The notes under the pieces are model-generated. The model was given only the letters and a program-made list of their open reading frames with translations. It did no database searches and was not told the DNA's origin. Positions 2,588 through 27,780 of a DNA stretch of 32,000 nt are shown here, piece after piece. Numbering within the stretch: the stretch's first letter is position 1; every line of letters starts with the position of its first letter. A program made the position numbers and the translations under genes. The DNA is from Nostoc punctiforme PCC 73102 (GTDB taxonomy: Bacteria > Cyanobacteriota > Cyanobacteriia > Cyanobacteriales > Nostocaceae), in contig NC_010628.1 of NCBI RefSeq assembly GCF_000020025.1, forward strand, positions 180,001 through 212,000, in the 5' to 3' direction.

Positions 2588-2917
2588 TTATTTTTTGGAA
2601 GTATCTAATGCTTTTAAATCATCTAAGCTACAGAGCAAACGAGGTTTTTCAGGGTCAGTCAAATCTAGCTGCTCCCAAGATATTGTATAGCCACCGTGGA
2701 TTTTATGTGCGCCAAAAAGGTGTAAGATTCTTAACCCAATTGTCCAAGCAGATAGTCTTTCTAACACAGCAGTGGTTCCGATCAGATATTCTTCAATAAC
2801 CCATTCTTCACCTCGTTGTTGGGCACGTACTTCCTCAATGCGTCCGACAGACTTGCCAGTTGAATCCAATACTTGTTTGCCTAGTAGCAGTTCCAGATGA
2901 ATTTCACGAGTTGCCAT
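2588..2917 (-). CDS. PRC-barrel domain protein (putative)
   Basis: LLGKQVLDSTGKSVGRIEEV...WVIEEYLIG resembles the PRC-barrel signature. The ATG at 2917 overlaps the upstream gene stop by 14 nt. Confidence 0.5.
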   Translation of the reverse strand: MATREIHLELLLGKQVLDSTGKSVGRIEEVRAQQRGEEWVIEEYLIGTTAVLERLSAWTIGLRILHLFGAHKIHGGYTISWEQLDLTDPEKPRLLCSLDDLKALDTSKK

Positions 2918-3275
2918 GTTCTGCTCCTGGAATTCGTTCAATAATCTGTTCCCGAAGCCATTTTTCATAAGCTAATGCCGGAGTTGCTTCAGCCTCAATC
3001 TCAACTTCGACATCAATCCCAACATCCCGCACTTTTGACAACGGAATTCTAAACGGTTCACTGTGTTTAGCACCCCAGCTATTTTCAATTGCTGCTACCC
3101 ACCTTCCTAAACGTGGATGAATGCGTCGTGCAAGGGTTATCATACCAGTTTCGATATAAATGAGTCGTGGCGGTTCCCCGTCGCGCAACTCCATGACAAT
3201 TCCATCGACTTTGCCCAGCTTGCGCTGATTGCTGTCAACTAATTGGTTATCAAGTACATCTCTAATAATGTCCAT
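2904..3275 (-). CDS. PRC-barrel domain protein (putative)
   Basis: VLDNQLVDSNQRKLGKVDGIVMEL...RLIYIETG is a PRC-barrel-like N-terminus. It is a distant paralog of the downstream ORF and is co-directional with the Nramp-like gene. Confidence 0.5.
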   Translation of the reverse strand: MDIIRDVLDNQLVDSNQRKLGKVDGIVMELRDGEPPRLIYIETGMITLARRIHPRLGRWVAAIENSWGAKHSEPFRIPLSKVRDVGIDVEVEIEAEATPALAYEKWLREQIIERIPGAEHGNS

Positions 3276-4537: not shown

Positions 4538-4962
4538 GGTTTGTTCTGCTGTGGTAGTTGCGAGTCTAGTGTTTGTCCTTCTTGCGATAAGTCCCCAAGT
4601 CGTTGTGACACTACAGAATAATTTTCTTGTTCAACTGCGGTTGACATTTGCTCTGTGATTTTTGCTAACCGTTTGATATGACCCAAAAGTGCTAACTTGT
4701 AAGACTGGGGAATAGCTGTAGATGATTCTATCTGTGCTATGTTGTCGGTTTCTGTCTGGAACTCTTGCTGTGCTTTATTCAACGTTTGTTTCGCATAGAC
4801 TTTTGGCACAGCACCTCGTACCCAAGCATCAGCAACCATTTTGCTTGTAGCTGTCCATGACTTTACAGTTTGTAGTTCTTCTGTAAGCCTATCTGGGGCT
4901 GCTTTGCTACAAGCGGTTAATAATGTCAAGGCTAATAAATAACCTATAAATATGCTTTTCAT
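4534..4962 (-). CDS. Hypothetical lipoprotein
   Basis: Signal peptide with lipobox (LLTAC). ATGA overlap with the Nramp-like start. No recognisable domain. Confidence 0.6.
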   Translation of the reverse strand: MKSIFIGYLLALTLLTACSKAAPDRLTEELQTVKSWTATSKMVADAWVRGAVPKVYAKQTLNKAQQEFQTETDNIAQIESSTAIPQSYKLALLGHIKRLAKITEQMSTAVEQENYSVVSQRLGDLSQEGQTLDSQLPQQNKP

Positions 4963-5269
4963 CAGATGTCCGTTTTTGTAGTCCTCCTTAAAACTTCATA
5001 GTCATTCAATTCCTGTAACATAGAGCATTTGACAACTCGTGCGAGGTAACGATCTGCAATTAAAACTATTAATTACAGACAAAAAGTTTTCTATTACCTT
5101 TTAGGGTCGTTTTTTTCTAGCTTATAAATTATAGGGGTTTATGATAACTTGGTTCTATTCACCCATAGATTAGTCTATAAATTGAAATGATCTTTACTTT
5201 GGTCAGAGAAATGAAATAAATTTATGATTAATTACATCCAGTATTTTTATCCAAAAGCACCATAAAGTG

Positions 5270-5602
5270 CTAAAAGACTCTTTTGCCCACCGCTACATCT
5301 CTATCAGGCTGAATTAATACAACTTCTCCATCATCTAAAACTACTCCCAAGACTAAAACTTCGGAGACAAAATTAGCTATTTGACGGGGTGGAAAGTTAG
5401 TAACAGCTAATATTAATGTGTTGATTAATTTTTCTTGGTCATAAAGTTTAGTAATTTGGGCACTAGATTTTTTAATGCCCAAATCGCCAAAATCTATCCA
5501 CAATTTATAAGCTGGTTTTTTGGCTTGAGGAAATTCTTCGACTTTAATGACTTTGCCTACATGAATCTCGATTTTTTCAAAATCACTATAGCTAATAAAC
5601 AT
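5270..5602 (-). CDS. tRNA-binding domain protein (CsaA/YgjH-like, EMAP-type OB fold)
   Basis: 110 aa. FEKIEIHVGKVIKVEEFPQAKKPAYKLWIDFG...VTNFPPRQIANFVSEVLVLG matches the CsaA/YgjH pattern. Confidence 0.75.
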   Translation of the reverse strand: MFISYSDFEKIEIHVGKVIKVEEFPQAKKPAYKLWIDFGDLGIKKSSAQITKLYDQEKLINTLILAVTNFPPRQIANFVSEVLVLGVVLDDGEVVLIQPDRDVAVGKRVF

Positions 5603-8445: not shown

Positions 8446-8529
8446 ATTTTATTGATGAAAAGCATAATTTTCATCAATAAAATCGTTCTGGTCATCAATA
8501 AAATCGTTCTGGTCATCAACAAAATCGTT
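8446..8529. repeat. Iteron-like array: one inverted plus about 2.8 direct copies of a 21-nt unit tcatcaataaaatcgttctgg
   Basis: Direct copies at 8471-8491 and 8492-8512, plus a partial copy at 8513-8529. gattttattgatga at 8446-8459 is the exact reverse complement of 8471-8484. Confidence 0.8.
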
Positions 8530-8992
8530 ATTTTTGTAACTAGAGGCAGGAATCTAGTCAAAAATTAACTCTAAATTGAAGTTGTAATTAACCAACGCTT
8601 TTGCTAAAAGTCTTATGTTGCAAGGATTGTAGATTATTCTCTCGCAAAAGTGACAAAAGCTCTTTAATAACTCAAGCTGATGACGGGTTCAAGAGAGCTA
8701 CAAAACTGTACTTAACAGTACCTTTTTTTGTACCGGATATTTTTAATATTGATAAGAGTAGCTTATTTAATATTAGATATTTTTGCTATTTGTACTTATA
8801 GTAGTATTTTTGCTTACTTTAACTAAAATCTCAGCATTACTATGTGCTACATCTAACTTATGTATAAACAATTATCCGAAATTCTGCTAGTTTAGTTAGT
8901 AGTTTGATTAAAATAAAGCATAAATTCCCTAAAATCAATATATTTATTCAGTAAATTTTGTCATCCCCATTCTTGAGTGAACTTGATTAGTT

Positions 8993-10330
8993 ATGCTCCT
9001 AGATTTAGAAAGATTTTATCAGGCTTGCAATCCGAGCAGACCTCTAATCATAGGAAACGCCAGCGATCGCAGGTACTATATTGATTTTGCTGCGGTACGG
9101 GGTGGCAAAATCATCGAAGCTTTGCAGCGCACGATCGCTCGAATATCACCGGATGAACCAACTTGTCAGCTATTTACAGGACATCTCGGCTGTGGAAAAT
9201 CAACGGAATTGTTGCGGTTGAAAGCTGAATTGGAAGCGCAGCAATTTCATGTAGTTTACTTTGAGTCTACCCATGTCTTAGAAATGGCAGATGTGGATGT
9301 GACTGATATTTTGTTGGCGATCGCAGGCCAAGTAAGTGAAAGCCTAGAAGCTATGAAAATCAGGCTCAAATCTACTTACTTTACCAAGTTGTTTGGTGAA
9401 ATTGTGGATTTTCTGCAAACACCAATTGACCTGGGGGTAGAAGCAGAGTTGTCTGTGGGAATTGCCAAAATTACAGCCAAAACTAAAGAAAGTCCCCAAT
9501 TGCGGCGGCGGTTAAGAGATTATTTAGAACCACGAACAGCAAATATTTTACAGTCAATTAATCAAGAATTGCTAGAACGTGCCACCAAGGAACTGAAAAC
9601 TAAAGGTAAAAAAGGACTGGTGGTTATTGTTGATAACCTGGATAGAGTTGCAATTCGACCTTTGCCATCGGGGCGATCGCTGCCAGAATACTTATTTATT
9701 CAGCGTGGTGAACAGTTACGCAAACTAAATTGCCATGTAGTCTACACAATTCCTTTAGCCCTGACTTTCTCCAACGATAGCGCCGAACTTCAACATCGTT
9801 TGGGGGGAGGTGTCGCACCAAAAATGTTACCGATGATACCTGTACGTCTGCGCTCTGGAGAGATTTTTCCTCAAGGGTTAGCCATGTTGCGGCAAATGGT
9901 TCTAGCTAGAGCTTTCCCAGACATTTTACCTAGCGATCGGTTAGGCTTAATTACAGAGGTGTTTGATAGTTTGGAAACCTTAGATCGGTTGTGCTTGATT
10001 AGTGGTGGTCATGTCCGTGACTTGCTAGGGTTACTGTTTGACTGTCTGCGAGAACAAGATCCACCTTTTGAGCGGGAGTGTGTTGATTTGGTGATTCAAA
10101 GACAGCGAGATTACCGAGCCAACGCTATCGATCCTCAAGAGTGGGAATTAATCTTTCAGGTGGTGCAACAGCAACGGGTGAGAGGTGATATAGAATACCA
10201 CACTTTATTGCGAAGTTTATTTGTATTTGAATACCGAGATCATCAGGGAGCTTGGTTTGCCGTCAACCCAGTTTTAGCAGAGACGGAAAAATTTAAATCA
10301 TGGTTGAACGACACCCACAAGCAGATATAA
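8993..10330 (+). CDS. P-loop ATPase (AAA+/STAND-like, no sensor repeats), partner of the downstream giant NTPase
   Basis: Walker A GHLGCGKST (nt 9179-9205). Walker B-like LVVIVDNLD (about nt 9617-9643). The ORF overlaps the next ORF by 31 nt. Confidence 0.75.
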   Translation: MLLDLERFYQACNPSRPLIIGNASDRRYYIDFAAVRGGKIIEALQRTIARISPDEPTCQLFTGHLGCGKSTELLRLKAELEAQQFHVVYFESTHVLEMADVDVTDILLAIAGQVSESLEAMKIRLKSTYFTKLFGEIVDFLQTPIDLGVEAELSVGIAKITAKTKESPQLRRRLRDYLEPRTANILQSINQELLERATKELKTKGKKGLVVIVDNLDRVAIRPLPSGRSLPEYLFIQRGEQLRKLNCHVVYTIPLALTFSNDSAELQHRLGGGVAPKMLPMIPVRLRSGEIFPQGLAMLRQMVLARAFPDILPSDRLGLITEVFDSLETLDRLCLISGGHVRDLLGLLFDCLREQDPPFERECVDLVIQRQRDYRANAIDPQEWELIFQVVQQQRVRGDIEYHTLLRSLFVFEYRDHQGAWFAVNPVLAETEKFKSWLNDTHKQI

Positions 10331-13300
10331 GAGCGGCTAATGAGCGGGCTTTACGGAGTTTGGGGAGAGCAATTGCCCTTTCTAGCGGTCAATTTTCTCT
10401 GGTTTTGGTGTGCTGCAATTATCGAGTTTTACAAGAACTTATGCTGCAAAGACTCGAAGAACTCTCTTCAGGAGTACACCATATTCAAAAGGTAATTCTG
10501 CCGCATAATGCTAGAAGTCTTTACACAAGTATTCATTTACAACTGGTAACTGAAGAGAATCCGCCATCAGCGTTGATGATTTTGGGTTTGGAGTCAGTAG
10601 ATGGAATCGACGATTTACTAAGGTCTATCAATCATATTCGTGATGAATTTCGCAAACGCCACCCATTCCCGATGATTTTGTGGGTGAATGAAGAAGTGTT
10701 GCAAAAGGTAGTCCGTTTAGCACCAGATTTTGCGAGTTGGGCGGCTACACCGATTCGGTTTGAGATGACAACTCAATCATTGCGGCAATTTTTGCAACAG
10801 GAAACGGATTCTTTATTTGCCACGGTGTTACCAAGCGATGCTGGACAACACCAACCTCCTCAAGTTGCAAAGCATTATTTCACTGTGGAGCAAGTCTGGA
10901 AAAATAGCTATGAACTCCACTTTGCTATTGGAGAGTTGCACGATCGTGGTATTACCTTAGAGCCAGAATTACACGCTAGTTTAGAGTTTGTTTTTGGTCT
11001 AGATAATTATATTAGCGATCGCATCAATACAGCTTTAAGCCATTTTCAGCAAAGCTTGCAAGTTTGGCAAAAGTTGGAAGAAATAGGGGGAGCAGGAGAG
11101 CGGGGGAGCGGGGGAGCAGGGGAGCAGGGGGATGAGAGGGTATTTTCTTCGTCTACACCTCCTAATCGCCCATCTCCTCTACTTCTGCGACAGGGAGTCT
11201 TGCTGTTTTATATTGGGCTGTGTTATTGCCGTTTAGCAGAGCAAAATCAAATAGAAAACCGTCGTCATTGGTACACAGCTAAATTTTATTTTCAGCAATG
11301 TTTGAATGTTTTACAGGTGGCTGGGCGTTTAGATATAGTTGCTGGGTTTATTAGTCAACTCGCTGAAGTTTTGCAATATCTGCAAGAGTGGGAAGAATTG
11401 CAGACTGTTGCCCAAAAGTCTCTGGAGTTGCATCAAACTTATGGTAGTCAAATTCAATTAGCTTGTGACTACGGTTTTCTGGCACAAGTGGCTGTGCAGC
11501 AGTCACGGTGGATACAGGCGAGTATATTAGCGCATGTATCGCTGCTAAAATTAGGTGAAGCGCAAAAGCACAACGATCCTTATAACTGCTTATTTCCATT
11601 ACTGCTGGCGCAAATTTACTATTTAGTGTTGGCGAAAGCACAGAGAAATTTAGGTGAGCTAGTAATCGCTCATGAATACTTAGAAAAAGCTACAAAAGAA
11701 CTGCCAGCAGCTTTAGAAAGCAGTGCCCATCAATACGATGCCCATCGTTATATTCGCTTATTGCGGACACTGCGATCGCTATACTTTGAAGAAGGTCGCT
11801 ATTTGGAAGCCTATTACATTCGCCAGAAACGGCGTTCTGTTGAGCAGCAGTACGGCTTTCGGGCTTTTATTGGTGCAGGACGCTTGCAACCCCAAAGACA
11901 GGCGACAAACCCTGCATTGATGGCACCTTCTGGGAGTAGTAGCGTTGCTTTAGAAATTGCTGCTTCTGGTCGAGAGCGTGATATTAATAACTTAATTGGG
12001 AGAATTAGCCGCGCCGATCAAAAGCTGACGGTAATTCACGGTCAATCAGGTGTAGGTAAAAGTTCTACCGTAACGGCAGGTTTAGTTCCAGCACTGCAAA
12101 ATCGAGCCATTGGCGATCAAATAGCTGTGCCTGTAGTACTGCAAGTTTACACCGATTGGGCGCGGGAGTTAGAGAAATCTTTAAGTCAGGCGATGTCTAG
12201 TGACGCATCCCTTGCCGTCTACGCTGAGATTAAGCTAGAAGCAAACATTGAAGCGGCGGAGGTTTTGCCCTACTCTCCTACACCGATCACCATCGTCAGA
12301 ATTTTACAACAACTCCAACAAAATGCTGATAACCACTTGATCACAGTTTTAATTTTTGACCAGTTTGAAGAATTTTTCTTTGGTTATAGCGATCGCAAGC
12401 AAAAGCAAGAATTTGATAAATTTATTAGTGATTGTCTGAATATCCCCTTTGTCAAAGTTATCCTTTCCTTGCGAGAAGATTACTTACATCGTTTGTTAGA
12501 TTTTAAACATCTCTCCGCACTGGAAGCGATTAATAATAATATTCTCGACAAGCATATTCGTTACCAGTTGAATAACTTTTCACCAGAATATGCTAAAGCA
12601 ATTATCCAAAAATTGACCGAGCGATCGCAGTTTAATTTAGAGCCTGCTTTAATCGATGCCTTAATCGAAGATTTATCCACAGAATTTGGAGAAGTCCGCC
12701 CAATTGAATTGCAAGTTGTGGGAGCGCAAATTCAAGATGAACGCATTACTACTCTAGAAGAATATCAGCCATATAGACCCAACAAACTTATCGAGCGATA
12801 TCTTAAAGAACTGATTAAAGACTGCGGCCCAGAAAATGAACGAGCCGCCTTACTCGTCTTATACTTATTAACAGATGAAAGTAACAACCGACCTTTTAAA
12901 ACTCGTGCTGAATTAGCGGCACAGCTAGCAGAATTAGAAGATGCCAGCAAATTAGAGTTAGTATTAGACATTTTAGTAAGCTCCGGTTTGGTAGTACTAT
13001 TCCCTGATGTACCAGAACGCTATCAACTAATTCACGATTATTTAGTAGACTTAATTCGCTACCTACAGCAACAAGAATCAAGTTTACAGGTACAACTAAA
13101 TCAGTTGCGCCATAAAGTAGAACAAAGTAAAGCTGAAATTGAGCGGCTTAAAAGCGAACTTAGCCAAAAAAAGCAGCGTTCCACATTAGCAGATTCTCAT
13201 CCCCAACAGGGATTAGATTTATTAACAGAATTGCGAGAATTACACAAGCGAGAAGAATTGAGTCAGTTACAAATTGAGCAATTACGAGCTGAATTAAAAG

Positions 13301-15450
13301 AAAAAGAATTAACAGCTAAACTTGCAGAAAGTCAAAAGAAACAAAGACTTAGCGAAGCTCAATTAAATCGTTCGTTGAAAATTGCCCTGACTGCTTCTGT
13401 TCTTGCCATATTGGGATTAAGTGTTTCCATAGTAACAGCAGTAGATAGTGAAATTAAAACCCTTAGTGCATCCAGTGAAGCCCTCTTTGCCTCACAAAAA
13501 GGTATTGATTCTTTAAAAGAAGGTTTAAGAGCGGGAAGAAAATTACAACAAATAGTTTGGGTAGATTCCTACACAAGAGAGCAAGTACAGACGGCGCTCT
13601 ATCAAGCTGTTTCTGGGTTAAGAGAATATAACCGCTTGGAGGGGCATTTATCTGGAGTAAATAATGCTACATTCAGCCCTGACCGTTCTTTAATTGCTTC
13701 AGCTAGTGCGGATACTACAATTAAACTTTGGCTTCCTGATGGTAGCTTGTTCAAAACCCTATCTGGGCATGAAGATGTAGTGAATAGCGTCAGTTTCAGC
13801 CCCGATGGTCAAATTATTGCTTCCGCTAGTCAAGACAAAACGGTGAAACTTTGGAGTCGAGAGGGTGTATTACTTGTTACTCTATTAGGGCATCAGGGTG
13901 TCGTGAATAGTGTCAGTTTTAGCCCAGATGGACAGATTATTGCTTCTGCAAGTACAGACAAGACAGTAAAACTGTGGAGTCGGGATGGTAAACTGCTCAA
14001 AACCTTGCCAGGACATGATGGTGCAGTTTTGAGTGTCGCTTGGTCAACTGATGGACAAACCATTGCTTCAGGGAGTGCAGACAAGACAGTAAAATTGTGG
14101 AGTCGGGATGGGAAGCTGCTCAAAACCTTGCAGGGACATGAGGATGCAGTTAAAAGTGTAGCTTGGTCAACCGATGGACAGACTATTGCTTCAGCTAGTT
14201 TAGACCAGACAATCAAACTGTGGAATCTAGAGGGGAAATTACTGCGAACCCTATCAGGGCATAGTGCTGGAGTTACCAGCGTCAGTTTTAGCCGTGATGG
14301 TAATACCATCGCTTCTGCAAGTACCGACGAGACAATCAAACTTTGGAGTTTTGAAGGTGTGCTGCTAGGAACCCTGAAAGGACATAATAATTGGGTTAAC
14401 AGTGTCAGTTTCAGCCCAGATGGTCGCACCCTAGCTTCTGCAAGTCGGGACAAAACTATTAAACTCTGGCATTGGGACGATGTGTTATTGCGAAAACCCA
14501 AAGCCGATAATGATGACTGGATAACTAGCATCAGTTTCAGCCCAGACGATCGCACCTTAGCAGCAGGGAGTCGAGACAAAACTATAAAACTATTCAGCCG
14601 CGAAGGTAAATTACTCCGAATACTTACAGGGCATCAAGGTCAAGTTTGGGGGGTTAGTTTCAGTCCAGATGGTCAAGCGATCGCTTCGGCTAGTAAAGAT
14701 CAAACAGTAAAGCTTTGGGGTGCTGACGGTAAACTGCTCAATACCTTACAGGGTCATAATAGTACCGTCTTGAGTGTAGCTTGGTCGCCTAATAGTCAAA
14801 TAATTGCCTCGGCTAGTAAAGATCAAACAGTAAAGCTTTGGAGTCGAGATGGTAAACTGCTCAACACCTTGCAAGGACATAAAGATGCAGTGAATTGGGT
14901 AAGTTTTAGCCCAGATGGTAAATTGCTAGCCTCAGCCAGTGATGACAAAACCGTAAAAATCTGGAGTTTAGATGGTAAATTGCTATATACCTTAATTGGT
15001 CATAGCCGCCGCGTAAATGGGGTTTCTTGGTCGCCTGATAGTCAAGTAATTGCTTCAGTTAGTATTGATAGCACAGTCCAACTTTGGAGCCGGGACGGTG
15101 GTTTACTAAATACTCTCACAGGGGATGGTGATAGTTTTATTAGTGTGAGTTTTAGCCCCGATGGTAAGACTTTAGCAGCTAGCAGTGATGACAAAATAAG
15201 AATTTGGAACCGAGAAGGGACATTACTGATCGCTTTAAAAGGCTATGAAGCTGAGTTAACCAGCGTCAGTTTCAGTCCTGACGGTAAGACTTTGGCTGCG
15301 GGTAGTGGTAACGGCACAGTGATTTTCCAGAATTTGGCAGATATCCAACTGGAAAAATTACTGGCACGGGGTTGTTATTTGCTCTATGATTATTTGCAGA
15401 CTAACCAGAAAGTGATGAAAGGCGATCGCGCCTTGTGTTCTAGTAGGTGA
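10300..15450 (+). CDS. Giant STAND-class (NACHT/nSTAND-like) NTPase with TPR-like region, coiled coil, one TM helix and 14 WD40 repeats
   Basis: 1716 aa. The N-terminal roughly 160 aa have an unassigned alpha/beta-looking pattern, followed by a helical TPR-like stretch. Walker A is GQSGVGKSS (nt 12040-12066). Walker B is VLIFDQFEEFF (nt 12346-12378). A heptad-rich K/E/Q/L segment runs about nt 13075-13370. A hydrophobic helix IALTASVLAILGLSVSIVTAV lies at about nt 13381-13443. Then come 14 repeats of the GH...SFSPDG..IASAS.DKTVKLW type. Confidence 0.85.
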   Translation: MVERHPQADIRAANERALRSLGRAIALSSGQFSLVLVCCNYRVLQELMLQRLEELSSGVHHIQKVILPHNARSLYTSIHLQLVTEENPPSALMILGLESVDGIDDLLRSINHIRDEFRKRHPFPMILWVNEEVLQKVVRLAPDFASWAATPIRFEMTTQSLRQFLQQETDSLFATVLPSDAGQHQPPQVAKHYFTVEQVWKNSYELHFAIGELHDRGITLEPELHASLEFVFGLDNYISDRINTALSHFQQSLQVWQKLEEIGGAGERGSGGAGEQGDERVFSSSTPPNRPSPLLLRQGVLLFYIGLCYCRLAEQNQIENRRHWYTAKFYFQQCLNVLQVAGRLDIVAGFISQLAEVLQYLQEWEELQTVAQKSLELHQTYGSQIQLACDYGFLAQVAVQQSRWIQASILAHVSLLKLGEAQKHNDPYNCLFPLLLAQIYYLVLAKAQRNLGELVIAHEYLEKATKELPAALESSAHQYDAHRYIRLLRTLRSLYFEEGRYLEAYYIRQKRRSVEQQYGFRAFIGAGRLQPQRQATNPALMAPSGSSSVALEIAASGRERDINNLIGRISRADQKLTVIHGQSGVGKSSTVTAGLVPALQNRAIGDQIAVPVVLQVYTDWARELEKSLSQAMSSDASLAVYAEIKLEANIEAAEVLPYSPTPITIVRILQQLQQNADNHLITVLIFDQFEEFFFGYSDRKQKQEFDKFISDCLNIPFVKVILSLREDYLHRLLDFKHLSALEAINNNILDKHIRYQLNNFSPEYAKAIIQKLTERSQFNLEPALIDALIEDLSTEFGEVRPIELQVVGAQIQDERITTLEEYQPYRPNKLIERYLKELIKDCGPENERAALLVLYLLTDESNNRPFKTRAELAAQLAELEDASKLELVLDILVSSGLVVLFPDVPERYQLIHDYLVDLIRYLQQQESSLQVQLNQLRHKVEQSKAEIERLKSELSQKKQRSTLADSHPQQGLDLLTELRELHKREELSQLQIEQLRAELKEKELTAKLAESQKKQRLSEAQLNRSLKIALTASVLAILGLSVSIVTAVDSEIKTLSASSEALFASQKGIDSLKEGLRAGRKLQQIVWVDSYTREQVQTALYQAVSGLREYNRLEGHLSGVNNATFSPDRSLIASASADTTIKLWLPDGSLFKTLSGHEDVVNSVSFSPDGQIIASASQDKTVKLWSREGVLLVTLLGHQGVVNSVSFSPDGQIIASASTDKTVKLWSRDGKLLKTLPGHDGAVLSVAWSTDGQTIASGSADKTVKLWSRDGKLLKTLQGHEDAVKSVAWSTDGQTIASASLDQTIKLWNLEGKLLRTLSGHSAGVTSVSFSRDGNTIASASTDETIKLWSFEGVLLGTLKGHNNWVNSVSFSPDGRTLASASRDKTIKLWHWDDVLLRKPKADNDDWITSISFSPDDRTLAAGSRDKTIKLFSREGKLLRILTGHQGQVWGVSFSPDGQAIASASKDQTVKLWGADGKLLNTLQGHNSTVLSVAWSPNSQIIASASKDQTVKLWSRDGKLLNTLQGHKDAVNWVSFSPDGKLLASASDDKTVKIWSLDGKLLYTLIGHSRRVNGVSWSPDSQVIASVSIDSTVQLWSRDGGLLNTLTGDGDSFISVSFSPDGKTLAASSDDKIRIWNREGTLLIALKGYEAELTSVSFSPDGKTLAAGSGNGTVIFQNLADIQLEKLLARGCYLLYDYLQTNQKVMKGDRALCSSR
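13636..15336 (+). repeat. Intragenic tandem array of 14 WD40-coding units (about 123 nt each)
   Basis: 41-aa periodicity. Long near-identical nucleotide tracts occur between units, e.g. gacaagacagtaaaa(c/t)tgtggagtcgggatgg at about 13960 and about 14083, and gctagtaaagatcaaacagtaaagctttgg at about 14690 and about 14813. Confidence 0.9.
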
Positions 15451-15564
15451 TAGCGTATTTATTTATCAAATTTACTTTTTAGTTTTACTTTTGCCTTGTT
15501 CTACTAATATGTTTACTAGTTCAATTTAATGTCTACTATTTAAAAACTAACTTTACAACATTCG

Positions 15565-16587
15565 CTAATTTACATTCATACTTTCTTCTAAAATTTTACT
15601 TATAAGTTGACCGCGAACATTACGTCCTTTTCTACTAGCAGTACCTTGATGTGTATAATAATAATATTGAGCAAACATATTTTTAGATACATCTTCTTTT
15701 TTATTTATATGTAGTTCTTCTTCTAAAGATTTTAAAGCATGAGCTAAAGTTTGCTCTTGAGGTAAATAACCATACTTGTTTTTAATTTTGATTAATTCAA
15801 CCATTAAAGTAAACAAACTAGACTTCTTTATCCACAAACTATCTGGAGGGAGATTAGACTCAATAATTAATTTAGATGCTTCGTTAAAATTATTAGACAT
15901 TAACTCTTTATTTGGATATTCATTATTATATTTTTCTACATAGGTCTTTACCTCTTTATCACTAGTAAAATAACCACCTTCTTCTATTGTTGACATAATT
16001 AGCAATACATATTCCAGGTCTTTCATACGAGAAAATTCACCTTCACTAAAGACCTCTAAACTAGTAAAAAGAGCATTATTTTCTAGAATATTTTTAGCAG
16101 TTGTGATGAACTCCCCTTCATATAATGAGTTGCTAATTTCTATTGCATTTAGTGCGTATTGTACAGAGTTGATTCTCTTAAAAACTTCTCTAATTTCACT
16201 TTCAGGAATTCTTCCTAAATCTCTAACGACAACTGTATAATCAAAAAAATCTGTTTTTTCTTGTTTAGACAATTTTTCAAACTTACTGATATTTTTGATA
16301 GTGAATTCTGGTGATGCTGTGACATATTGGTAGATTGTACTTAATCTTTGTTGACCATCTACGACAAGTGTTTTTGATGTTTGAATATCAAGATCGATTT
16401 CACCATCAGCTAGATATATTTCAGGGAAAGGAAGTTTTAATAAAATTGTTTCTATAAATTTTTCTTTATGTGCATTATTCCATACAAGCTTTCTTTGAAA
16501 AGATGGAGCAAGTATTAAAGTACCAGTTTTCATCATGTTGAATAAATCTAAAACTTTTTTATTAGTTGCAATACCATTTTTGCTCAT
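15565..16587 (-). CDS. Stand-alone DUF262 (ParB/Srx-fold, GmrS-like) protein lacking a DUF1524 nuclease domain
   Basis: FQRKLVW and VVDGQQRLSTIY motifs, followed by FKRINSVQYALNAIE. These are hallmarks of the DUF262 N-terminal domain of GmrSD-type enzymes. No H-N-H/DUF1524-like motif appears in the C-terminal half. ATG at 16587 has GGAGG 9 nt upstream. An alternative ATG lies at 16596. Confidence 0.8.
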   Translation of the reverse strand: MSKNGIATNKKVLDLFNMMKTGTLILAPSFQRKLVWNNAHKEKFIETILLKLPFPEIYLADGEIDLDIQTSKTLVVDGQQRLSTIYQYVTASPEFTIKNISKFEKLSKQEKTDFFDYTVVVRDLGRIPESEIREVFKRINSVQYALNAIEISNSLYEGEFITTAKNILENNALFTSLEVFSEGEFSRMKDLEYVLLIMSTIEEGGYFTSDKEVKTYVEKYNNEYPNKELMSNNFNEASKLIIESNLPPDSLWIKKSSLFTLMVELIKIKNKYGYLPQEQTLAHALKSLEEELHINKKEDVSKNMFAQYYYYTHQGTASRKGRNVRGQLISKILEESMNVN

Positions 16588-16588
16588 T

Positions 16589-17200
16589 TTAAACATCCTC
16601 CTGTCTCAGTTTTTTGATATTCTGCATGTGATATTTTTCAAAGAGAGCGGAATTATAATAAATACCCCCTGCTATTTTTTGGGGTGTATATTTATAAGAG
16701 ATTGATTTAAAATACTCAAACCACTCATTTGTACGAGAATATTTAAATGGAAATAAATCTGGTCTTAGCCATCCTTTAAAAAAATATTTTAAAAATTTTT
16801 TATACCTTTGTTCTTCTTTATCAGTTCTAGATACTAAACTTATGTCGAAATCATATAATTCTGACCAAAATTTTTCAAAAATTTCTCTAGATATAATAGC
16901 TATATCTATATCTGATTCTTCAGAGAACAAATTCCATAATTTACTTGGAGCTATACTAAATCCTAATTTAGCTGAACCAACCATCAATACACATTCTGGT
17001 CTTTCTTCAAAATAAGTAGCAATTTCATGCTTGAGGTCAAAATATTTACCTTCATCATCTTTAAAAACATAAGGTGTACCATGTATTATATATTTTTGAA
17101 CAATTAATTTCTCTGTTAGAGAGTAATCACGTAATGCTGCTTTGAACATATCAATCTTTTGATTAATATGGCTTTGGTCAATTATTAAAGTCTGCCACAT
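16589..17200 (-). CDS. Putative minimal Pol-beta-superfamily nucleotidyltransferase
   Basis: 203 aa. VLMVGSAKLGFSIAPSKLWNLFSEESDIDIAII fits the G-S ... D-x-D pattern (G75-S76, D97, D99) of Pol-beta-type NTases such as the MNT, CD-NTase and AbiEii/MenT classes. The stop TAA (16589-16591) is 1 nt from ATG 16587 of the DUF262 gene. The fold assignment rests on motif only. Confidence 0.5.
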   Translation of the reverse strand: MWQTLIIDQSHINQKIDMFKAALRDYSLTEKLIVQKYIIHGTPYVFKDDEGKYFDLKHEIATYFEERPECVLMVGSAKLGFSIAPSKLWNLFSEESDIDIAIISREIFEKFWSELYDFDISLVSRTDKEEQRYKKFLKYFFKGWLRPDLFPFKYSRTNEWFEYFKSISYKYTPQKIAGGIYYNSALFEKYHMQNIKKLRQEDV

Positions 17201-17414
17201 AGAGTATTTTATTTAATCAACATAACTTGAACCAAGTTTTTATAGCTAAAAATACATATACTAAATGCTAAAAATTACTAAGTCAATAAGTGTATATACC
17301 TGAATAAATAGTGATTTGATTTTTTAGCTTTGTTAGTCCGAACAAAAGACAACAGAAGTTACAAACTGTTAATAGTCACAGAATACAATCGGATAATTAA
17401 AATAGGTATTTTCA

Positions 17415-17463
17415 CAAAAAGGCGATCGCACTACATTACCAATTGCGATCAGATCGCCTTTTG
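17415..17463. other. GC-containing hairpin with flanking A/T runs (bidirectional terminator-like) at the right edge of the AT-rich cassette
   Basis: aaaaggcgatc (17418-17428) pairs with gatcgcctttt (17451-17461). The stem contains a HIP1 site. It lies between two divergent gene starts, where a terminator is not expected. Confidence 0.45.
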
Positions 17464-17583
17464 TTAACCAACCTCAAGCCGTTGTTTCAAAACTACGGCA
17501 GAAAAATCAGCCAGGACTCATAGACAAAGCTGTACATCTTGGTAGCATTGAGTGAAGTACCCGTCAGCAAGGGAGCGAGGGCG

Positions 17584-18207
17584 ATGTATGCAAGCGTCAC
17601 ACAACCACTGACTTTTGAAGAGTTTCTTGCCTGGGATGATGGTTCAGGCAGAGAGTTTGAGCTATTAGATGGGATTCCCGTGCCATTATCAGAACCAAAT
17701 GCAAATCATGAGGATTTGATCCAGCGACTGTGTGCCTACTTAGAAAATCACTACCAAGAAAATGACCTGTCTTATGTGCCGCGCCAGTCCAAGCAGGTTC
17801 GGCTCAAAACAGCATTAGGAGAAAAGGAAAAAAGCCGGAAAGCAGATATTGTCATATTTGCAAGAGTTGAATGGCAGAGGATGAGAACTATCTCTAGTTC
17901 TGCTGCTGCATATATTCCACCACCGGGAATCATTGAAGTCGTTAGCAACAACTGGAAGGACGACTATCTGACAAAACTTGCTGAATATGAAGACTTGGGC
18001 GTTTTCGAGTACATCATTGTAGACTATGCTGCTTTTGGTGACATTCGGTTCATTGGCTTTCCTAAGCAGCCAACCATTACAATCTACCAACTTGAAGGTG
18101 CAGAGTATTTACCTCCGAAGGTTTTTCGAGGGCAGGATCTAATTCATTCTAAATTGTTTCCGAACATTCCCTTAACTGCTGAACAAATTTTTGCAATGAG
18201 TCGCTGA
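17584..18207 (+). CDS. Uma2-family (DUF820) putative restriction-endonuclease-like protein
   Basis: FEEFLAWDDGSGREFELLDGIPV..., ADIVIF, IEVVSNNWKDDYLTKLAEYEDLGVFEYIIVD. This is the pattern of the Uma2 family, which is abundant in cyanobacteria. ATG at 17584 is preferred over the TTG at 17539. Confidence 0.75.
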   Translation: MYASVTQPLTFEEFLAWDDGSGREFELLDGIPVPLSEPNANHEDLIQRLCAYLENHYQENDLSYVPRQSKQVRLKTALGEKEKSRKADIVIFARVEWQRMRTISSSAAAYIPPPGIIEVVSNNWKDDYLTKLAEYEDLGVFEYIIVDYAAFGDIRFIGFPKQPTITIYQLEGAEYLPPKVFRGQDLIHSKLFPNIPLTAEQIFAMSR

Positions 18208-18520: not shown

Positions 18521-18847
18521 CTATAGCGATATAACAGTTTCAGCAGATTGGCCAGACGCATGACGAGGGCGAAGATGTAAGTTGATTTCCGTATCGAGCC
18601 GCTTGAGGAAAATGAGGAGTTTACCCTCGCTGAACCGTTGAAACTCTCCTTTCATCAAATGAGATACTTCTGGCTGGGGAATGCCAAGAAGTTCGCTGAT
18701 TTCGCGCTGTTTCAGGTTGCGTTGAGAAAGGAGGCGCAGTACCTGAATCCCTATCTTGCCTCGCATAAAAAGTTCCGAAGCATCCTCTAAACCGAGATCA
18801 GCAAATACGTTGCCACTGCTTTCTTCAAAAACGGGTTCCTGTGTCAT
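18521..18847 (-). CDS. XRE-family HTH antitoxin (HigA-like)
   Basis: HTH segment LKQREISELLGIPQPEVSHLMKG. 4-nt overlap with the upstream toxin ORF. Confidence 0.75.
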   Translation of the reverse strand: MTQEPVFEESSGNVFADLGLEDASELFMRGKIGIQVLRLLSQRNLKQREISELLGIPQPEVSHLMKGEFQRFSEGKLLIFLKRLDTEINLHLRPRHASGQSAETVISL

Positions 18848-19218
18848 TGTTGTTTCTCCCTTGCCACTGCGTCTTTATAGCGTTGTTTAATCAGGTCAAC
18901 ATCAGCCTGTGGGGTTTTAATCCCCTGCTTTGATTTTTTCTGAAAAACGTGCAGAACATAGATTTTCTCTCCAATCTTTACCGCATAGACTGCCCTATAA
19001 GTATCGGTATCGTAGCGTTTGACGATTTCATACACGCTGCTTCCAACCCCTTTAAAAAGTTTGGCATCCATTGGTGTTTCCCCAGCTTGCACCAATTGCA
19101 GCGAATAGCCTAGTGATGCACGCACATCTTCAGGAAATGAGCGGATATTTTTGAGAGAGTCTCCCATCCAAACCAGAGGTCGTAAAGGAATTTCTATAAT
19201 ATCCTCGTCATCGTCCAT
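18844..19218 (-). CDS. RelE/ParE-superfamily toxin, Gp49-like/HigB-like (DUF891 type)
   Basis: 124 aa. LFKGVGSSVYEIVKRYDTDTYRAVYAVKIGEKIYVLHVFQKKS is typical of the phage Gp49-like HigB family. The toxin-first gene order is as in higBA. Confidence 0.7.
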   Translation of the reverse strand: MDDDEDIIEIPLRPLVWMGDSLKNIRSFPEDVRASLGYSLQLVQAGETPMDAKLFKGVGSSVYEIVKRYDTDTYRAVYAVKIGEKIYVLHVFQKKSKQGIKTPQADVDLIKQRYKDAVAREKQQ

Positions 19219-19692: not shown

Positions 19693-19701
19693 CTTTGCTT
19701 A

Positions 19702-19775
19702 CGGGACTGGTGCGGCTCGAACGCACGACCTGACGCTTAGGAGGCGTCCGCTCTATCCAACTGAGCTACAACCCC
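19702..19775 (-). tRNA. tRNA-Arg (anticodon CCU)
   Basis: The reverse complement folds by hand into a cloverleaf. Acceptor GGGGTTG/CAGTCCC has two G-U pairs. D-arm GCTC/GAGC. Anticodon stem GACGC/GCGTC with loop CTCCTAA. T-arm GTGCG-TTCGAGC-CGCAC. Discriminator is G. 74 nt, with no encoded CCA. Confidence 0.9.
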
Positions 19776-19808
19776 AACTATGAAGCACATATAATTATAG
19801 CAGTACTT

Positions 19809-21678: not shown

Positions 21679-23157
21679 ATGAGCGATCGCTTTGATATAA
21701 ATCATGTTTACAATATTCTTGGGTTAAAACCAGGTGCATCTGTTGATGAGGTCAAGCAAGCTTACCGTCAGATGGCTAAAACTTGGCATCCAGATTGTTT
21801 TTTCGAACCGCAGCAAAAGTTAGAAGCGGAAGAGAAAATCAAAGAAATCAATCAAGCCTATGCAAGGTTAAAGTCTTATCAGCCGGATGAGACAAATCAA
21901 TCTGCTTCCACTTCTATCAAAATTGATTTCACTCCATCTAATGCTGAAAGTTTCTACAAACTAGGGATAGAGAAAGCTCAAAAAGAAAAATATACTGAAG
22001 CAATTGAAGACTTTACCCAAGCGATTCGTCTCAACCCCAACTACTTTGAAGCTTACAAATACCGAGGGCTTGCTTGCTCGAAACTAGGATATGAAAATAG
22101 AGCCGAGTCAGATTTTAGAAATTCTATACAACTGGAACTGAAACAGAAAAAAGCAGCACCCAAACCTACATCACCACCACCAAAGCCAGCAACGCCGCCA
22201 CCACCCAAACCTACATCACCACCGCCAAAGCCAGCAACACCGCCACCACCTAAATCAGAGTCTCAACCTTCACCCTGGAAATGTGTACACACCCTGACTC
22301 ATCTCAACTGGGTTTTTACAACTGCAATCAGTCCAGATGGTAAAACTTTAGCTAGTGGAAGTAGTGATAATACGATCAAAATTTGGCATCTCGACACAGG
22401 GAAATTACTACATACTCTCACTAGTCATACAAAATGGGTAAGATGCCTAGCCTTTAGCCCAGATAGCCAAACTCTAGTTAGTGGCAGTGATGATAGCACC
22501 CTAATGATTTGGCAAGTGTCTACAGGTAAATTACTCAAGACACTCAAAGTACATTCAACCCCAGTTTTTTCTGTAATCATTAGTCCAGATGGTCAAACTA
22601 TCCTGAGTGGCGGTACAGACAGTACTATCAAGATTTCCCATATAGAGATGGGACAATTACTGCAAGTCCTCAAAGGTCATTCTGGCTTAGTTTACTCCCT
22701 TGCTATTTGCCCAAAACAACAGATTTTTGTAAGTGGCGGTGCGGATAATACCATTAAGCTGTGGAATTTGAAGAGTAACAAACTGCTGCAAACTCTCAAC
22801 GGACATTCAGGCTGGGTGATGTGTGTCGCCATTAGCCCTGATGGAAAAATTTTAGCTAGTAGCAGTTATGACCAAACTATCAAGCTATGGAATATCAATA
22901 CAGGTAAGGTAATTAACACTCTTGCCGGACATTGCAGCTATGTTTGTGCGATCGCTTTTAGTCCCGTTGGTCAGTATCTTGCTAGTGGTAGTGCAGATCA
23001 CAGTGTAAAACTATGGGATGTTAACACAGGACAAGAACTTTACACTTTGAATAACCATTCTGATTGGGTTAACTCCGTCACTTTCAGTCCTGATAGCAAA
23101 ACCCTAGCTAGTGGTAGTCGGGATATGACAATTAAGCTTTGGCAATGCGATATCTAA
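21679..23157 (+). CDS. J-domain, TPR, Pro-rich linker and 7 WD40 repeats in one fusion protein
   Basis: The HPD J-domain and TPRs are paralogous to the upstream gene. The linker is a duplicated KPTSPPPKPATPPPP. Seven WD repeats follow (…SPDGKTLASGSSDNTIKIW…). Confidence 0.85.
   Translation: MSDRFDINHVYNILGLKPGASVDEVKQAYRQMAKTWHPDCFFEPQQKLEAEEKIKEINQAYARLKSYQPDETNQSASTSIKIDFTPSNAESFYKLGIEKAQKEKYTEAIEDFTQAIRLNPNYFEAYKYRGLACSKLGYENRAESDFRNSIQLELKQKKAAPKPTSPPPKPATPPPPKPTSPPPKPATPPPPKSESQPSPWKCVHTLTHLNWVFTTAISPDGKTLASGSSDNTIKIWHLDTGKLLHTLTSHTKWVRCLAFSPDSQTLVSGSDDSTLMIWQVSTGKLLKTLKVHSTPVFSVIISPDGQTILSGGTDSTIKISHIEMGQLLQVLKGHSGLVYSLAICPKQQIFVSGGADNTIKLWNLKSNKLLQTLNGHSGWVMCVAISPDGKILASSSYDQTIKLWNINTGKVINTLAGHCSYVCAIAFSPVGQYLASGSADHSVKLWDVNTGQELYTLNNHSDWVNSVTFSPDSKTLASGSRDMTIKLWQCDI
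22159..22248 (+). repeat. Perfectly phased 45-nt tandem duplication encoding the Pro-rich linker
   Basis: 22159-22203 and 22204-22248 differ at only 2 positions. Confidence 0.85.
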
Positions 23158-23452
23158 ACACAAATTAAAAATTTAGATGATTTCAGTAATTTACTAGATT
23201 TTTTATCAATCCATCACCTGACAGTTTAATAACATCCATCTTTGGGATACTCTTTCTCTAGATTAAGTATTAACTTCCTATAGATAGAGCCACTTGTCCG
23301 ATCTCAGAGGTTATTCTGACATTAACCAACAATTGGGTAATAAAACAAACTCAATATTTATCAGCAACATAGATTTTTAAACTCATTAAAACCTCTTTTT
23401 CTTACAAAGTTTTAGTTTGTCAACATCATATCGAGGAGTGAAATCAATAGTT

Positions 23453-24187
23453 ATGTCTATTCCCAATGAACGCGAAATCAAAAACAGTGAAATTAAGCAA
23501 GAATCTTACACTGATACTAATGGTAATATTCACACTGACTTGACGCGAACTACAGAAACAGTCAAGAACAGTACAGCTAATCCCAACTCTTACACTAACG
23601 GTTACGTACAAGGTCGAAATACCGAGCGTAGCTACCAGCAAGCTGATTTAGCCGAGCGTGACAATGAAAATGCTAGCCGTGGTTTGCTGTTAGGTATTAT
23701 TGTTACTTCTCTAGTTGGTTTGATTGTAGGTGGGGTCTGGTACTTCAACCAACGCAATAACGCTGCGGTTGACACTACTGTGCCGGTCTTAGTTCCTGTA
23801 CCAAGTAATAATAGTCCAACTCCTAGTGCTTCTCCTCAACCACAAACGAAGATAATCGAAAGAATCAGAGAAGTACCTGTTCCTGTCCCTGTTCCACAAC
23901 AGCAGGTTACACCTCAATCTGCACCTCGCCAACCAGATATTAACATTACTATTCCACCCCAACAGTCTGCGGCAGAAAAAGCACCTTCTGTAACTCAGCC
24001 AGCCCCGAAAGCAACACAAAGTCCGGCGACAAGTCCAACTAGTAATACTGCCACTCCAGGTACGAAAGGTGATAGCACTAAAACCACTTCACCTCAAGGA
24101 GTAGACCAGTCAAACAGTACATCGAATAATGGTTCTTCTACCGCAAATGATGCTACAACAGGCGGTCTGCTCAATAACGGCTTCTGA
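23453..24187 (+). CDS. Hypothetical single-pass membrane protein with a P/S/T/Q-rich low-complexity C-terminus
   Basis: GAGGAG lies about 12 nt upstream of ATG 23453. One TM helix (LLLGIIVTSLVGLIVGGVWYF). The C-terminal half is low complexity. Confidence 0.6.
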   Translation: MSIPNEREIKNSEIKQESYTDTNGNIHTDLTRTTETVKNSTANPNSYTNGYVQGRNTERSYQQADLAERDNENASRGLLLGIIVTSLVGLIVGGVWYFNQRNNAAVDTTVPVLVPVPSNNSPTPSASPQPQTKIIERIREVPVPVPVPQQQVTPQSAPRQPDINITIPPQQSAAEKAPSVTQPAPKATQSPATSPTSNTATPGTKGDSTKTTSPQGVDQSNSTSNNGSSTANDATTGGLLNNGF

Positions 24188-26773: not shown

Positions 26774-27780
26774 TAGAGTTGTCGGGAAATAAAAGATAAG
26801 TGAGGCAATGCTGGTCTTGTAATTGGGATTCTCTTAAGCAGCCATCAAGTAGAAGTTCCATAATCCTGCTGCGGTCAGCATCAAATGGTCATCAAAGTTT
26901 TCAATCCGATTACGATAAATGACACTGGCGGCGTTGTAGCGCTTCACACCAGCAAAGGCATTTTCGCAAACTACACGGGATTGACTCAATTGACGATTCT
27001 CCGTTTTTTGAAGGTCACTTAACTTGCCCCCTTTGGGCTTTTTGTGAGGAAGATGGAGATTGTCATACTGCTTCTGTAATCCCTGAAAGCCCGAGTCTAC
27101 TTCAATCGGAATTTCATCAGGCACACTACCTGCAATGTCATCTTCGTCATGAAAACGTTTGTCATGCAGTTTGCCTTCTCGTGCTTTGCTTAAGATCAAG
27201 ACCCGTTTGGTTTCATCAACTGCTCTTCCAAGTGTTTACGCGTATGACGTTTCTTTTTACCGGAGTAATTCTGTTGTTGTTGTTCTCTTTCTTGAGGTCG
27301 CGCAATTGGGCGTTCTGTCCCATCAATCATCACTCGTTGCACTCCTGGAAAGCGTGACAAAAATGCTTCAATGCTTTCGAGATGGCGTTCCGGCAGCGCC
27401 ATCTTCTGTCCCAAAGCCGCTTCTAATATTGGCTGCAATCGATGCATCCACTCATGTGCCTGGGAGCGATGCATATCAAAGAGCAGTCCCGCCACATCAA
27501 AGGTCGGATAACATTTGAAATAGAAAAGGATGAAAAACAATTTGTCTTGGGCTGTAAGTAAGCGGGCTTTGCGTCCTCCACCCAGGCCACGTTGACGAGG
27601 CTTGGCCTGTTGAGTATCTAGGTACATCGTGGTAAACGTGGGCAAAAGGGCATCAAATGCTTTCCGGTTCAACCCAGTTAATGCCCTCAACAGTCGGTCT
27701 TGCTTCAGCGCACCTTCAATATTCAGCATCATTCTTCCCTACCACTGCTGTCTATTCTCTCTTATTTCCCGACAAGTCTA
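26774..27780 (-). mobile_element. IS5-family-like insertion sequence (PIF/Harbinger-type DDE_Tnp_4 transposase), about 1 kb
   Basis: Terminal inverted repeats: tagaGttgtcgggaaataa (26774-26792) versus the reverse complement of ttatttcccgacaaGtcta (27762-27780). They enclose the two transposase ORF halves. Confidence 0.75.
26834..27732 (-). pseudogene. DDE_Tnp_4-type transposase split by a 1-nt frame change
   Basis: ORF 27196-27732 carries the first catalytic region (MIDGTERPIARP ... YSGKKKRHTRKH). ORF 26834-27199 carries EVDSGFQG and RVVCENAFAGVKRY. The second frame is open back to 27235, reading TLGRAVDETKRVLILSKAREGK, so the frame break is around 27225-27240. Confidence 0.7.

Follow-up and report, generated by a model that had tools for sequence, protein, structure and literature searches.

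An AT-rich two-gene operon in Nostoc punctiforme pairs a nucleotidyltransferase-like protein with a nuclease-less DUF262 protein: a candidate defence module

The DNA analysed here is a stretch of 32,000 nucleotides (nt) from Nostoc punctiforme PCC 73102 (contig NC_010628.1, positions 180,001 to 212,000; hereafter the window), in which two minus-strand genes form a self-contained operon of 1.6 kb. The upstream gene encodes a 203-amino-acid (aa) protein resembling nucleotidyltransferases (NTases) of the Pol-beta type, and the downstream gene a 340-aa protein of the DUF262 group, that is, of ParB/sulfiredoxin (Srx)-type NTPases. The features of this cassette are compiled in Table 1. A first-pass annotation made from the letters of the window had described two tightly coupled open reading frames (ORFs) at this place, and both pairs of coordinates, the spacing of a single nucleotide and the internal GGAGG were all read as it had claimed.

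Table 1. Features of the cassette and its flanks, in window coordinates.
Feature	Position	Strand	Description	Basis
NTase-like gene (upstream)	16589..17200	-	203 aa, Pol-beta-like nucleotidyltransferase candidate	ORF list
DUF262 gene (downstream)	15565..16587	-	340 aa (343 aa if from ATG 16596); predicted NsnA-like ParB/DUF262 NTPase, eight-helix C-terminal domain, without nuclease domain	
Shine-Dalgarno AGGAGG of the DUF262 gene	16597..16602	-	inside the 3' end of the NTase gene; translational coupling	sequence read
AT-rich 5' region of the operon	17201..17414	-	conserved; contains a promoter-like site	
HIP1-based hairpin	17414..17463	.	at the GC/AT boundary, between the operon upstream region and the divergent Uma2 gene	
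AT-rich 3' flank	15451..15564	-	DUF262 stop to STAND gene stop	

Read on the minus strand, the junction of the two genes is AGGAGG-ATG-TTT-AAA-ATG, in which the TAA of the NTase-like gene (16591-16589) is followed after one nucleotide by the ATG of the DUF262 gene. As the AGGAGG lies 9 nt upstream of ATG 16587 and most homologues begin there, this ATG is the likely start of the 340-aa protein. The 5' region of the operon is conserved to ~90 % among ten Nostocales loci, other genomic contexts included, and carries a promoter-like TTGACT-17 nt-TAGTAT at 17286-17258, which is a consensus match only. On the other side, only the first ~16–25 nt past the DUF262 stop (..GTTGTAAAGTT) are shared with copies in other contexts. 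A terminator-like hairpin was looked for in the 3' flank and none was found, and an Rfam search of 15000-18000 likewise returned no match.

The evidence that carries this analysis is the conservation of the pairing. A word-indexed search gave 318 matches to homologues of the 203-aa protein. In 185,579 GTDB species genomes, 183 stretches were confirmed, and 80 of them were fetched for locus analysis. A profile search with a limit of E≤1e-3 extended the 203-aa family to 1542 cluster representatives (50 % identity). The phyla number more than a dozen and include Cyanobacteria, Bacteroidota, Bacillota, Actinomycetota, Chloroflexota, Planctomycetota, Acidobacteriota, Poribacteria and Omnitrophota. 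A DUF262 homologue follows downstream on the same strand in 78/80 loci, the two exceptions being contig fragments, and the gap between the genes is at most 130 nt in 74 of these 78; the remaining four comprise a frameshift (L010), an NTase fragment (L036) and insertions of 1.6–3 kb (L060, L070). The usual junction of the called ORFs is an overlap of 4 or 8 nt or a gap of +1 nt, and most of the 65 complete loci have a stop/start overlap or a gap of no more than 10 nt. Coming from the other side, a reciprocal search with the DUF262 protein found an NTase-like gene directly upstream in 3/3 cases (Gloeothece, Anoxybacillus and a Nitrosopumilus metagenome-assembled genome, MAG). Synteny across genomes, on which the first-pass annotation had staked its proposal, is thus near-universal.

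The identities of the two proteins to those of the window co-vary over 71 loci with a Pearson r of 0.98, and a metagenomic protein of 536 aa (P0310) is a natural fusion of an N-terminal NTase to DUF262 with all motifs intact. The pair is a translationally coupled, co-inherited and co-diverging operon across many phyla, and because of this coupling and co-divergence and the fusion protein, the two products probably reside in one complex. Clustering of all flanking ORFs of the 80 loci yielded no third conserved gene, only the NTase and DUF262 clusters being common. The divergent Uma2 gene was considered as a third component and rejected, as it travels with the cassette within Nostocales only. 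In the Poribacteria loci L060 (6604-9663) and L070, where insertions split the pair, the lineage context is a conserved TPR / AP_endonuc_2 one.

The 340-aa protein is matched over residues 16–159 by the Pfam model GmrSD_N with an E-value of 6e-21, as are 59/59 diverse homologues. The two motifs first read from the letters, FQRxxVW (F33-Q-R35..V38-W39) and DGQQR (D80-G-Q-Q-R84), are present in the window protein, and invariant across the 59 homologues are F33-Q-R35, W39, E59, D80-G-Q-Q-R84, R141-I-N143, E153 and N156, together with R190, D193, E267, R325 and R328. Foldseek with an AlphaFold2 model (pLDDT 82) returned BrxU (7p9k, E 1e-3), SspE (6jiv), ParB and sulfiredoxin. The C-terminal half is all-helical, with eight predicted helices after residue 160, and thereby matches the description of the ‘ParBDB’ DNA-binding domain given for NsnA, DndB, GmrSD and SspE (PMC12065111). 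Among the PADLOC models, NsnA scored best for residues 13–245 (1.6e-32), with PD-T4-2_A (1.6e-24) and REase_II (4e-12) also matching; the defence models matched by the DUF262 protein were NsnA, PD-T4-2_A, HEC-06 and SspE.

No DUF1524 match was found in the window protein or among the recurrent Pfam families of the 59 homologues, so that Pfam, Foldseek and the homologues agree with the first reading of a DUF262/ParB-like partner without a DUF1524 nuclease. A HEPN domain in the C-terminal half was also considered, as HEPN_Apea matches the window protein at E 0.022, yet this match recurs in 2/59 homologues only and no Rx4-6H motif is conserved; the only invariant histidine, in the close set, lies in the DUF262 domain. 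From the GmrSD_N match, the ParBDB-like helices, the NsnA score and the lack of DUF1524 and HEPN, we therefore class the 340-aa protein as a predicted NsnA-like sensor or NTPase without an effector domain.

A longer version of the partner occurs in Clostridium estertheticum (L086, 10001-15399), where the DUF262 protein has 472 aa including a C-terminal extension of ~140 aa without family assignment; this pair is followed by a gene for an HD-CE/HATPase protein of 1029 aa, and 4 kb upstream lies another DUF262 gene in divergent orientation.

For the 203-aa protein, the assignment builds on motifs. Across 60 sequences reaching down to 31 % identity, G75, S76, K78, L79, F81, S82, S96, D97 and D99 are invariant, and so are G143, W144, R146, P147, D148, P151, W160 and Y190. 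In an AlphaFold2 model (pLDDT 88.8) with three helices at the N-terminus and an alpha/beta core behind them, V74-G75-S76 closes a predicted strand (71–74) in the manner of the hG[GS] motif (G75 and S76 in 60/60), and S96-D97-I98-D99-IAII sits at the predicted second strand (98–103), where the [DE]h[DE]h motif is expected. The candidate third carboxylate is D148 (GW-x-RPD), which is invariant in the 60 close and medium relatives. NTP_transf_2 and Polbeta reach 13.8 bits (cut-off 21) and 12.3 bits (cut-off 26.9) with the window protein, both below threshold; at E≤1 they recur in 23/60 and 10/60 members, respectively, no other family being found in more than two, and the best member attains 20.1 bits against the NTP_transf_2 cut-off of 21. 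An hhalign comparison with a hand-entered sequence of kanamycin nucleotidyltransferase aligned the helix-strand-GS and DID/DIE elements exactly, at E 0.044, and the top Foldseek matches, all weak, were PAP, TUTase, Tam41, Pol lambda, cGAS and the CCA enzyme. NCBIfam gave no match, and no Pfam or PADLOC family matched above threshold. The protein matches phrog_32008 at 2e-13, which is filed under ‘unknown function’, and many members bear the IMG label ‘predicted nucleotidyltransferase’.

Membership of the Pol-beta NTase superfamily thus appears quite probable. The G75-S76 and D97-x-D99 signature singled out by the first-pass annotation is invariant, and Pol-beta NTase is the only recurrent family signal; the fold that it had deduced from this signature went unconfirmed by Foldseek (best E 0.74). 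Both proteins keep their putative catalytic motifs invariant and, across the loci compared, are obligately co-encoded.

A distant NT-like subfamily of ~219 aa was met in Klebsiella, Serratia, Sulfurovum and Aliarcobacter (L085, 5295-6549; L090 and L091, 7409-8660; L092, 7439-8654). It is coupled to an upstream, overlapping gene for a Transgly-domain protein of ~200 aa and not to DUF262, and adjoins an integrase in Klebsiella, which makes it another, likewise unexplained two-gene module based on this NT-like fold. A DUF4365 nuclease on an Aliarcobacter plasmid was considered as an alternative partner of the NTase family and ruled out, since the conserved partner of the 219-aa subfamily is the upstream Transgly-domain gene.

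The cassette also stands out from its surroundings by composition. Its GC content (15451-17414) is 27.4 % compared to 41.1 % elsewhere in the window, corresponding to z = −6.4 for a segment of 1.96 kb, and the lowest window of equal size elsewhere in the 32 kb has 35 %. The GC content at third codon positions is 0.19 and 0.17 in the two cassette genes versus 0.34–0.45 in eight neighbouring genes, so that both measures bear out the earlier description of the cassette as compositionally foreign. Further short stretches of low GC (29–33 %) occur at 8501-9000, 5001-5500 and 23001-23500, the cassette being longer and lower than each of them. The octamer GCGATCGC (HIP1), of which the window has 27 sites, is indeed absent from 15430-17421 as had been pointed out, but with a Poisson P of ~0.19 this 2-kb gap, the sixth largest in the window, is not significant and adds nothing beyond the low GC.

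At the upstream boundary of the cassette lies a hairpin of −19 kcal/mol (z = −4.65) with HIP1-like arms. The arms are kept and the loop is variable in L001, L002 and L005-L010, and the hairpin is deleted in L003. It had been proposed to be the terminator of the neighbouring STAND gene, displaced by an insertion, a reading contradicted by the Nostoc loci L005, L006 and L008, in which the hairpin stays attached to the upstream region of the cassette although no STAND gene adjoins. A perfect 12-nt direct repeat, AAAGGCGATCGC, brackets the cassette at 15418-15429 and 17418-17429, exactly 2000 nt apart, and its two copies are the only two of the 27 HIP1 sites in the window with an AAAG prefix. The repeat was not seen at the cassette ends in other contexts (L006, L008), and its reading as a target-site duplication is therefore unproven.

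Comparison of the loci points to a mobile unit. In 64/65 loci the cassette has a higher AT content than the flanking DNA, the mean difference being 11 GC points, and this includes hosts with 60–70 % GC. In Flagellimonas it forms a solitary insertion between housekeeping genes, and in Cronobacter dublinensis it is carried by pA84-3, a Rop-encoding ColE1-type plasmid of 6.2 kb without an annotated methyltransferase. Within Nostocales, a block from 15549 to ~18215, which comprises both cassette genes with their upstream region, the hairpin and the divergent Uma2 gene, is shared at ~88 % identity with L006 and L008, where the STAND gene is not adjacent; in L005 the alignment of these parts falls into two pieces. 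The distribution over phyla is patchy, with identities of ~50 % between Cyanobacteria, Firmicutes and Bacteroidota. Judged by these features, the cassette is a self-contained, horizontally mobile two-gene operon.

The strongest contextual clue to its function comes from an IMG/VR contig (L081) with a distant pair, whose NTase is related to the family with 99.7 % hhalign probability and whose DUF262 protein is 30 % identical to that of the window and matches NsnA at 2.8e-40 over model positions 46–371 of 385. This pair lies directly beside, and convergent with, the P2 gpQ portal gene, the portal being 100 % identical to that of P2. The cos-proximal gpA-gpQ interval is a defence hotspot of P2-like phages and houses old and tin in P2 itself (PMC9122126, PMC13586616). 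A second prophage copy (L083) adjoins KAP NTPase/PDC-S20. A megablast search of both prophage pairs against 5,426 complete E. coli genomes gave no match. Other loci have an SNF2 helicase and RE_endonuc with SLATT/SMODS nearby (Anoxybacillus), an HSDR_N protein (the Nitrosopumilus MAG), toxin-antitoxin (TA) genes (Gloeothece) or the HD-CE and second DUF262 genes of Clostridium estertheticum mentioned above, and restriction-modification (R-M) genes occur near ~10–15 % of loci by raw tally.

We compared the pair to the named systems that share one of its components. With Menshen (NsnABC) it has in common the type I architecture of NsnA, i.e. ParB-DUF262 followed by an eight-helix ParBDB-like domain (PMC12065111), and the DGxQR motif; unlike Menshen, it comes without NsnB (ABC ATPase and DUF3696) and NsnC (inPIN and nuclease), its sole partner being the upstream NTase-like protein. 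No NsnB or NsnC could be found downstream, as the 80 loci hold no third conserved gene and in the window a convergent STAND gene follows the DUF262 gene. GmrSD, BrxU and SspE, which act in type IV restriction and phosphorothioate sensing, possess the same N-terminal DUF262 NTPase domain with QR and DGQQR, and BrxU and SspE are the best structural matches; their defining C-terminal DUF1524 His-Me nuclease is however missing here, and two genes take the place of a single polypeptide. PD-T4-2, reportedly introduced by Vassallo et al. in 2022, comes close in that it, too, consists of two genes and is based on a DUF262 protein that lacks DUF1524. Its second component carries a HEPN domain (PF18735; PMC10952713), whereas the partner here is NTase-like and encoded upstream; neither the 203-aa protein nor four relatives matched any PADLOC model (E≤1 or 0.01), and Pfam found no HEPN in them.

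Among the NTase-containing systems, the type VII HEPN-MNT modules resemble the cassette in that the gene of a small Pol-beta-type NTase precedes and overlaps that of its partner in a compact, mobile and AT-rich unit. Here, however, the partner is a ParB/DUF262 NTPase and not a HEPN RNase, and the NTase-like protein, at ~200 aa with three additional N-terminal helices and a spacer of 21 residues between GS and DxD, stays below the thresholds of the MNT models. An NTase gene in first position is the arrangement of MNT antitoxins, and the NTase toxins AbiEii and MenT have the other order. The likeness to AbiE and MenAT would consist in growth arrest by nucleotidyl transfer, provided that the NTase is the effector; no AbiEii/DUF1814 model matched, the two genes stand in the opposite order, and the partner is no antitoxin of the AbiEi/MenA type. 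CBASS differs in that the window protein of only 203 aa matches no PADLOC cyclase and its partner shows DUF262 alone. WonAB and GrwAB (PMC12137116) were examined as names for the pair and discarded, their components being different. PADLOC-DB v2 holds no model for the NTase-like protein, and a pairing of NTase and DUF262 is not described in the open-access full-text literature searched on DUF262, 2025–2026 papers included, in line with the view that this is no named system. The pair thus appears to share its sensor with Menshen, GmrSD/BrxU/SspE and PD-T4-2, yet to miss a defining feature of each, and we describe it as a candidate defence system organised around DUF262, whose new partner belongs to an unclassified NTase-like family. 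The central proposal of the first-pass annotation, a conserved, foreign and unnamed module of an NTase and a DUF262-only protein, came through the comparisons of synteny, composition and named systems.

Our preferred, still tentative explanation is that the cassette is an unnamed anti-phage or anti-plasmid module of the DUF262 group. The case for defence is one of context, from which we infer function and mechanism; the NTase fold and a defence role as such both seem probable. In keeping with the family logic of sensor plus output in DUF262 systems (PMC10952713, PMC12065111), the 340-aa protein would serve as the sensor, its DUF262 domain and DNA-binding helical domain attaching to DNA that is foreign or modified, as in GmrSD, BrxU, SspE and NsnA. 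NTP binding and hydrolysis at DGQQR would provide the switch, and as the DUF262 protein has no nuclease, it would hand the signal to the bound 203-aa NTase. As the effector, the latter might then nucleotidylate a nucleic-acid or protein target, for instance tRNA 3' ends, which MenT/AbiEii-type NTases modify, and thereby halt growth of the infected cell or replication of the phage. That an NTase replaces the nuclease as effector had already been suggested by the first-pass annotation; the absence of a nuclease from the partner holds, and the effector role is one of several readings that the data allow. With slightly less assurance, we further suggest a widespread, previously undescribed immune system of Bacteria and at least one archaeal MAG, in which invading DNA is sensed by a ParB/DUF262 NTPase lacking a nuclease that governs, or is governed by, Pol-beta-like NTases of a new family. 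The read-out would be nucleotidyl transfer and not DNA cleavage, with tRNA, DNA ends or the sensor itself as acceptors.

Several points weigh against this explanation. The NTase-first order fits MNT antitoxins and not AbiEii or MenT toxins, and the sensor, regulator and effector roles are our own assignments to either protein. As to the fold, D148 is replaced in the P2-hotspot variant, the 21-residue spacer from GS to DxD is long, no Foldseek match reached E≤0.001 in PDB or BFVD, no hidden Markov model match of the 203-aa family attains its curated cut-off, and when PDB sequences were searched with a profile of the NTase alignment, only chance matches came up. The immediate neighbours are often ordinary metabolic genes, and the tallies of defence neighbours are raw counts without a background rate. 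Finally, sequenced phages and plasmids seldom carry the family (none of 50,697 phage records and 2 of 72,556 plasmids), and tblastn of the NTase against the INPHARED phages gave no match.

The main competitor reverses the polarity. By analogy to MNT-HEPN, the pair would form a type VII TA-like system, in which the upstream NTase, as regulator or antitoxin, silences the DUF262 protein by nucleotidylation (e.g. AMPylation). The DUF262 protein would then be the toxic or effector part, working as a ParB-type NTPase or by nicking once infection or loss of the NTase sets it free. We consider this unlikely on balance, although gene order and overlap match MNT-HEPN modules, the stand-alone cargo of a 6-kb ColE1-type plasmid would suit an addiction module, and the neighbourhoods in Gloeothece and in the window are rich in TA genes. 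A possible modification site is offered by the conserved Tyr/Arg-rich C-terminal helix of the DUF262 protein (A309-x-YYYY..R322..R325..R328), whose Tyr run is however not invariant outside the close family. Nicking and NTPase activities of ParB/Srx proteins are reported in work cited in a passage of PMC12839542. The partner, on the other hand, is not a HEPN protein by the counts given above, and the fusion P0310 suits a permanent complex better than it does a labile antitoxin, though fused TA systems exist. We also know of no DUF262-only protein that is toxic on its own.

Compared to this reversed polarity, restriction and signalling are both less likely. In the former, the two proteins would be subunits of a modification-dependent, type IV-like nuclease, or would supply restriction in an R-M system whose other half is a C5 cytosine methyltransferase. 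Such a methyltransferase is in fact the commonest neighbour that is not lineage-specific, adjacent in 6–7 of ~63 non-redundant loci and directly upstream in an operon-like arrangement in L026; the REase_II match of the DUF262 domain points the same way, as do GmrSD, BrxU and SspE, which are DUF262 restriction enzymes. Yet ~90 % of the loci, the complete 6-kb plasmid and the solitary chromosomal insertions included, have no methyltransferase, several methylase loci contain separate restriction enzymes (NgoPII, DpnII) or candidate restriction endonuclease ORFs as second or third neighbours, and neither protein has a recognisable nuclease domain. As most loci do without a methylase and separate enzymes stand close by in others, restriction-modification is a minor and improbable rival.

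We likewise give little credence to a role outside defence, in which a selfish or housekeeping module, serving for example regulation, plasmid maintenance or the modification of DNA/RNA ends, would merely hitch-hike in variable regions. This reading would account for the many loci among ordinary metabolic genes, for the context conserved within the Poribacteria lineage and for the related NT-like subfamily, whose Transgly-domain partner has no obvious link to defence. It is at odds with the patchy distribution at ~50 % identity between phyla, the near-universal AT skew, the pair in the P2 hotspot and the characterised DUF262 proteins in the literature searched, all of which act in defence. Very improbable is a signalling pair in which a nucleotide second messenger produced by the NTase (CD-NTase or mCpol-like) has the DUF262 protein as its receptor or effector, for although the GS and DxD motifs, the DGQQR nucleotide pocket and a weak match of a distant NT-like relative to the PADLOC oligonucleotide-cyclase model (E 0.005) would fit, the window protein is far smaller than CD-NTases and lacks such a match itself, the partner has no recognised SAVED, CARF, STING or TIR domain, and the fused version makes a diffusible signal unnecessary.

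The DUF262 proteins that act in defence in the literature searched are GmrSD, BrxU, SspE, Menshen, PD-T4-2, Dazbog and GrwAB, and wherever their effector is known or proposed it is a nuclease. If the anti-phage or anti-plasmid reading is true, the NTase-like partner would equip this sensor family with a new kind of output chemistry, and a function would be given to an unannotated family of ~1500 clusters at 50 % identity that has no Pfam or NCBIfam model and is listed in PHROGs under ‘unknown function’. The pair is directly testable, being small and self-contained and having relatives in a prophage of the Escherichia coli phage P2 and on a plasmid of the enterobacterium Cronobacter.

In the window, the cassette is part of what seems to be an accessory ‘conflict’ island of STAND/KAP NTPases, the cassette itself, Uma2 and a Gp49-HTH pair, which adjoins housekeeping genes (tocopherol cyclase, TatC). 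On its downstream side, 8993-15450 (+) holds a KAP/STAND P-loop NTPase gene (445 aa) that overlaps the start of a gene for a 1716-aa STAND-WD40 protein with at least 14 WD40 repeats. Divergent from the cassette on the other side is a Uma2-family putative restriction endonuclease (17539-18207, +; Pfam 8e-27), a close homologue of which matches PADLOC PDC-S03; this gene stays with the cassette in Nostocales loci of otherwise different context. It is followed at 18521-19218 (−) by overlapping genes for a Gp49-like protein of HigB/RelE type (124 aa) and an HTH_37 protein (108 aa), a probable toxin-antitoxin module, after which tRNA-Arg(CCT) is located at 19701-19776. Small overlapping ORF pairs that resemble toxin-antitoxin modules are further present at 2588-3275, 4534-4962, 26834-27732 and 30896-31812.

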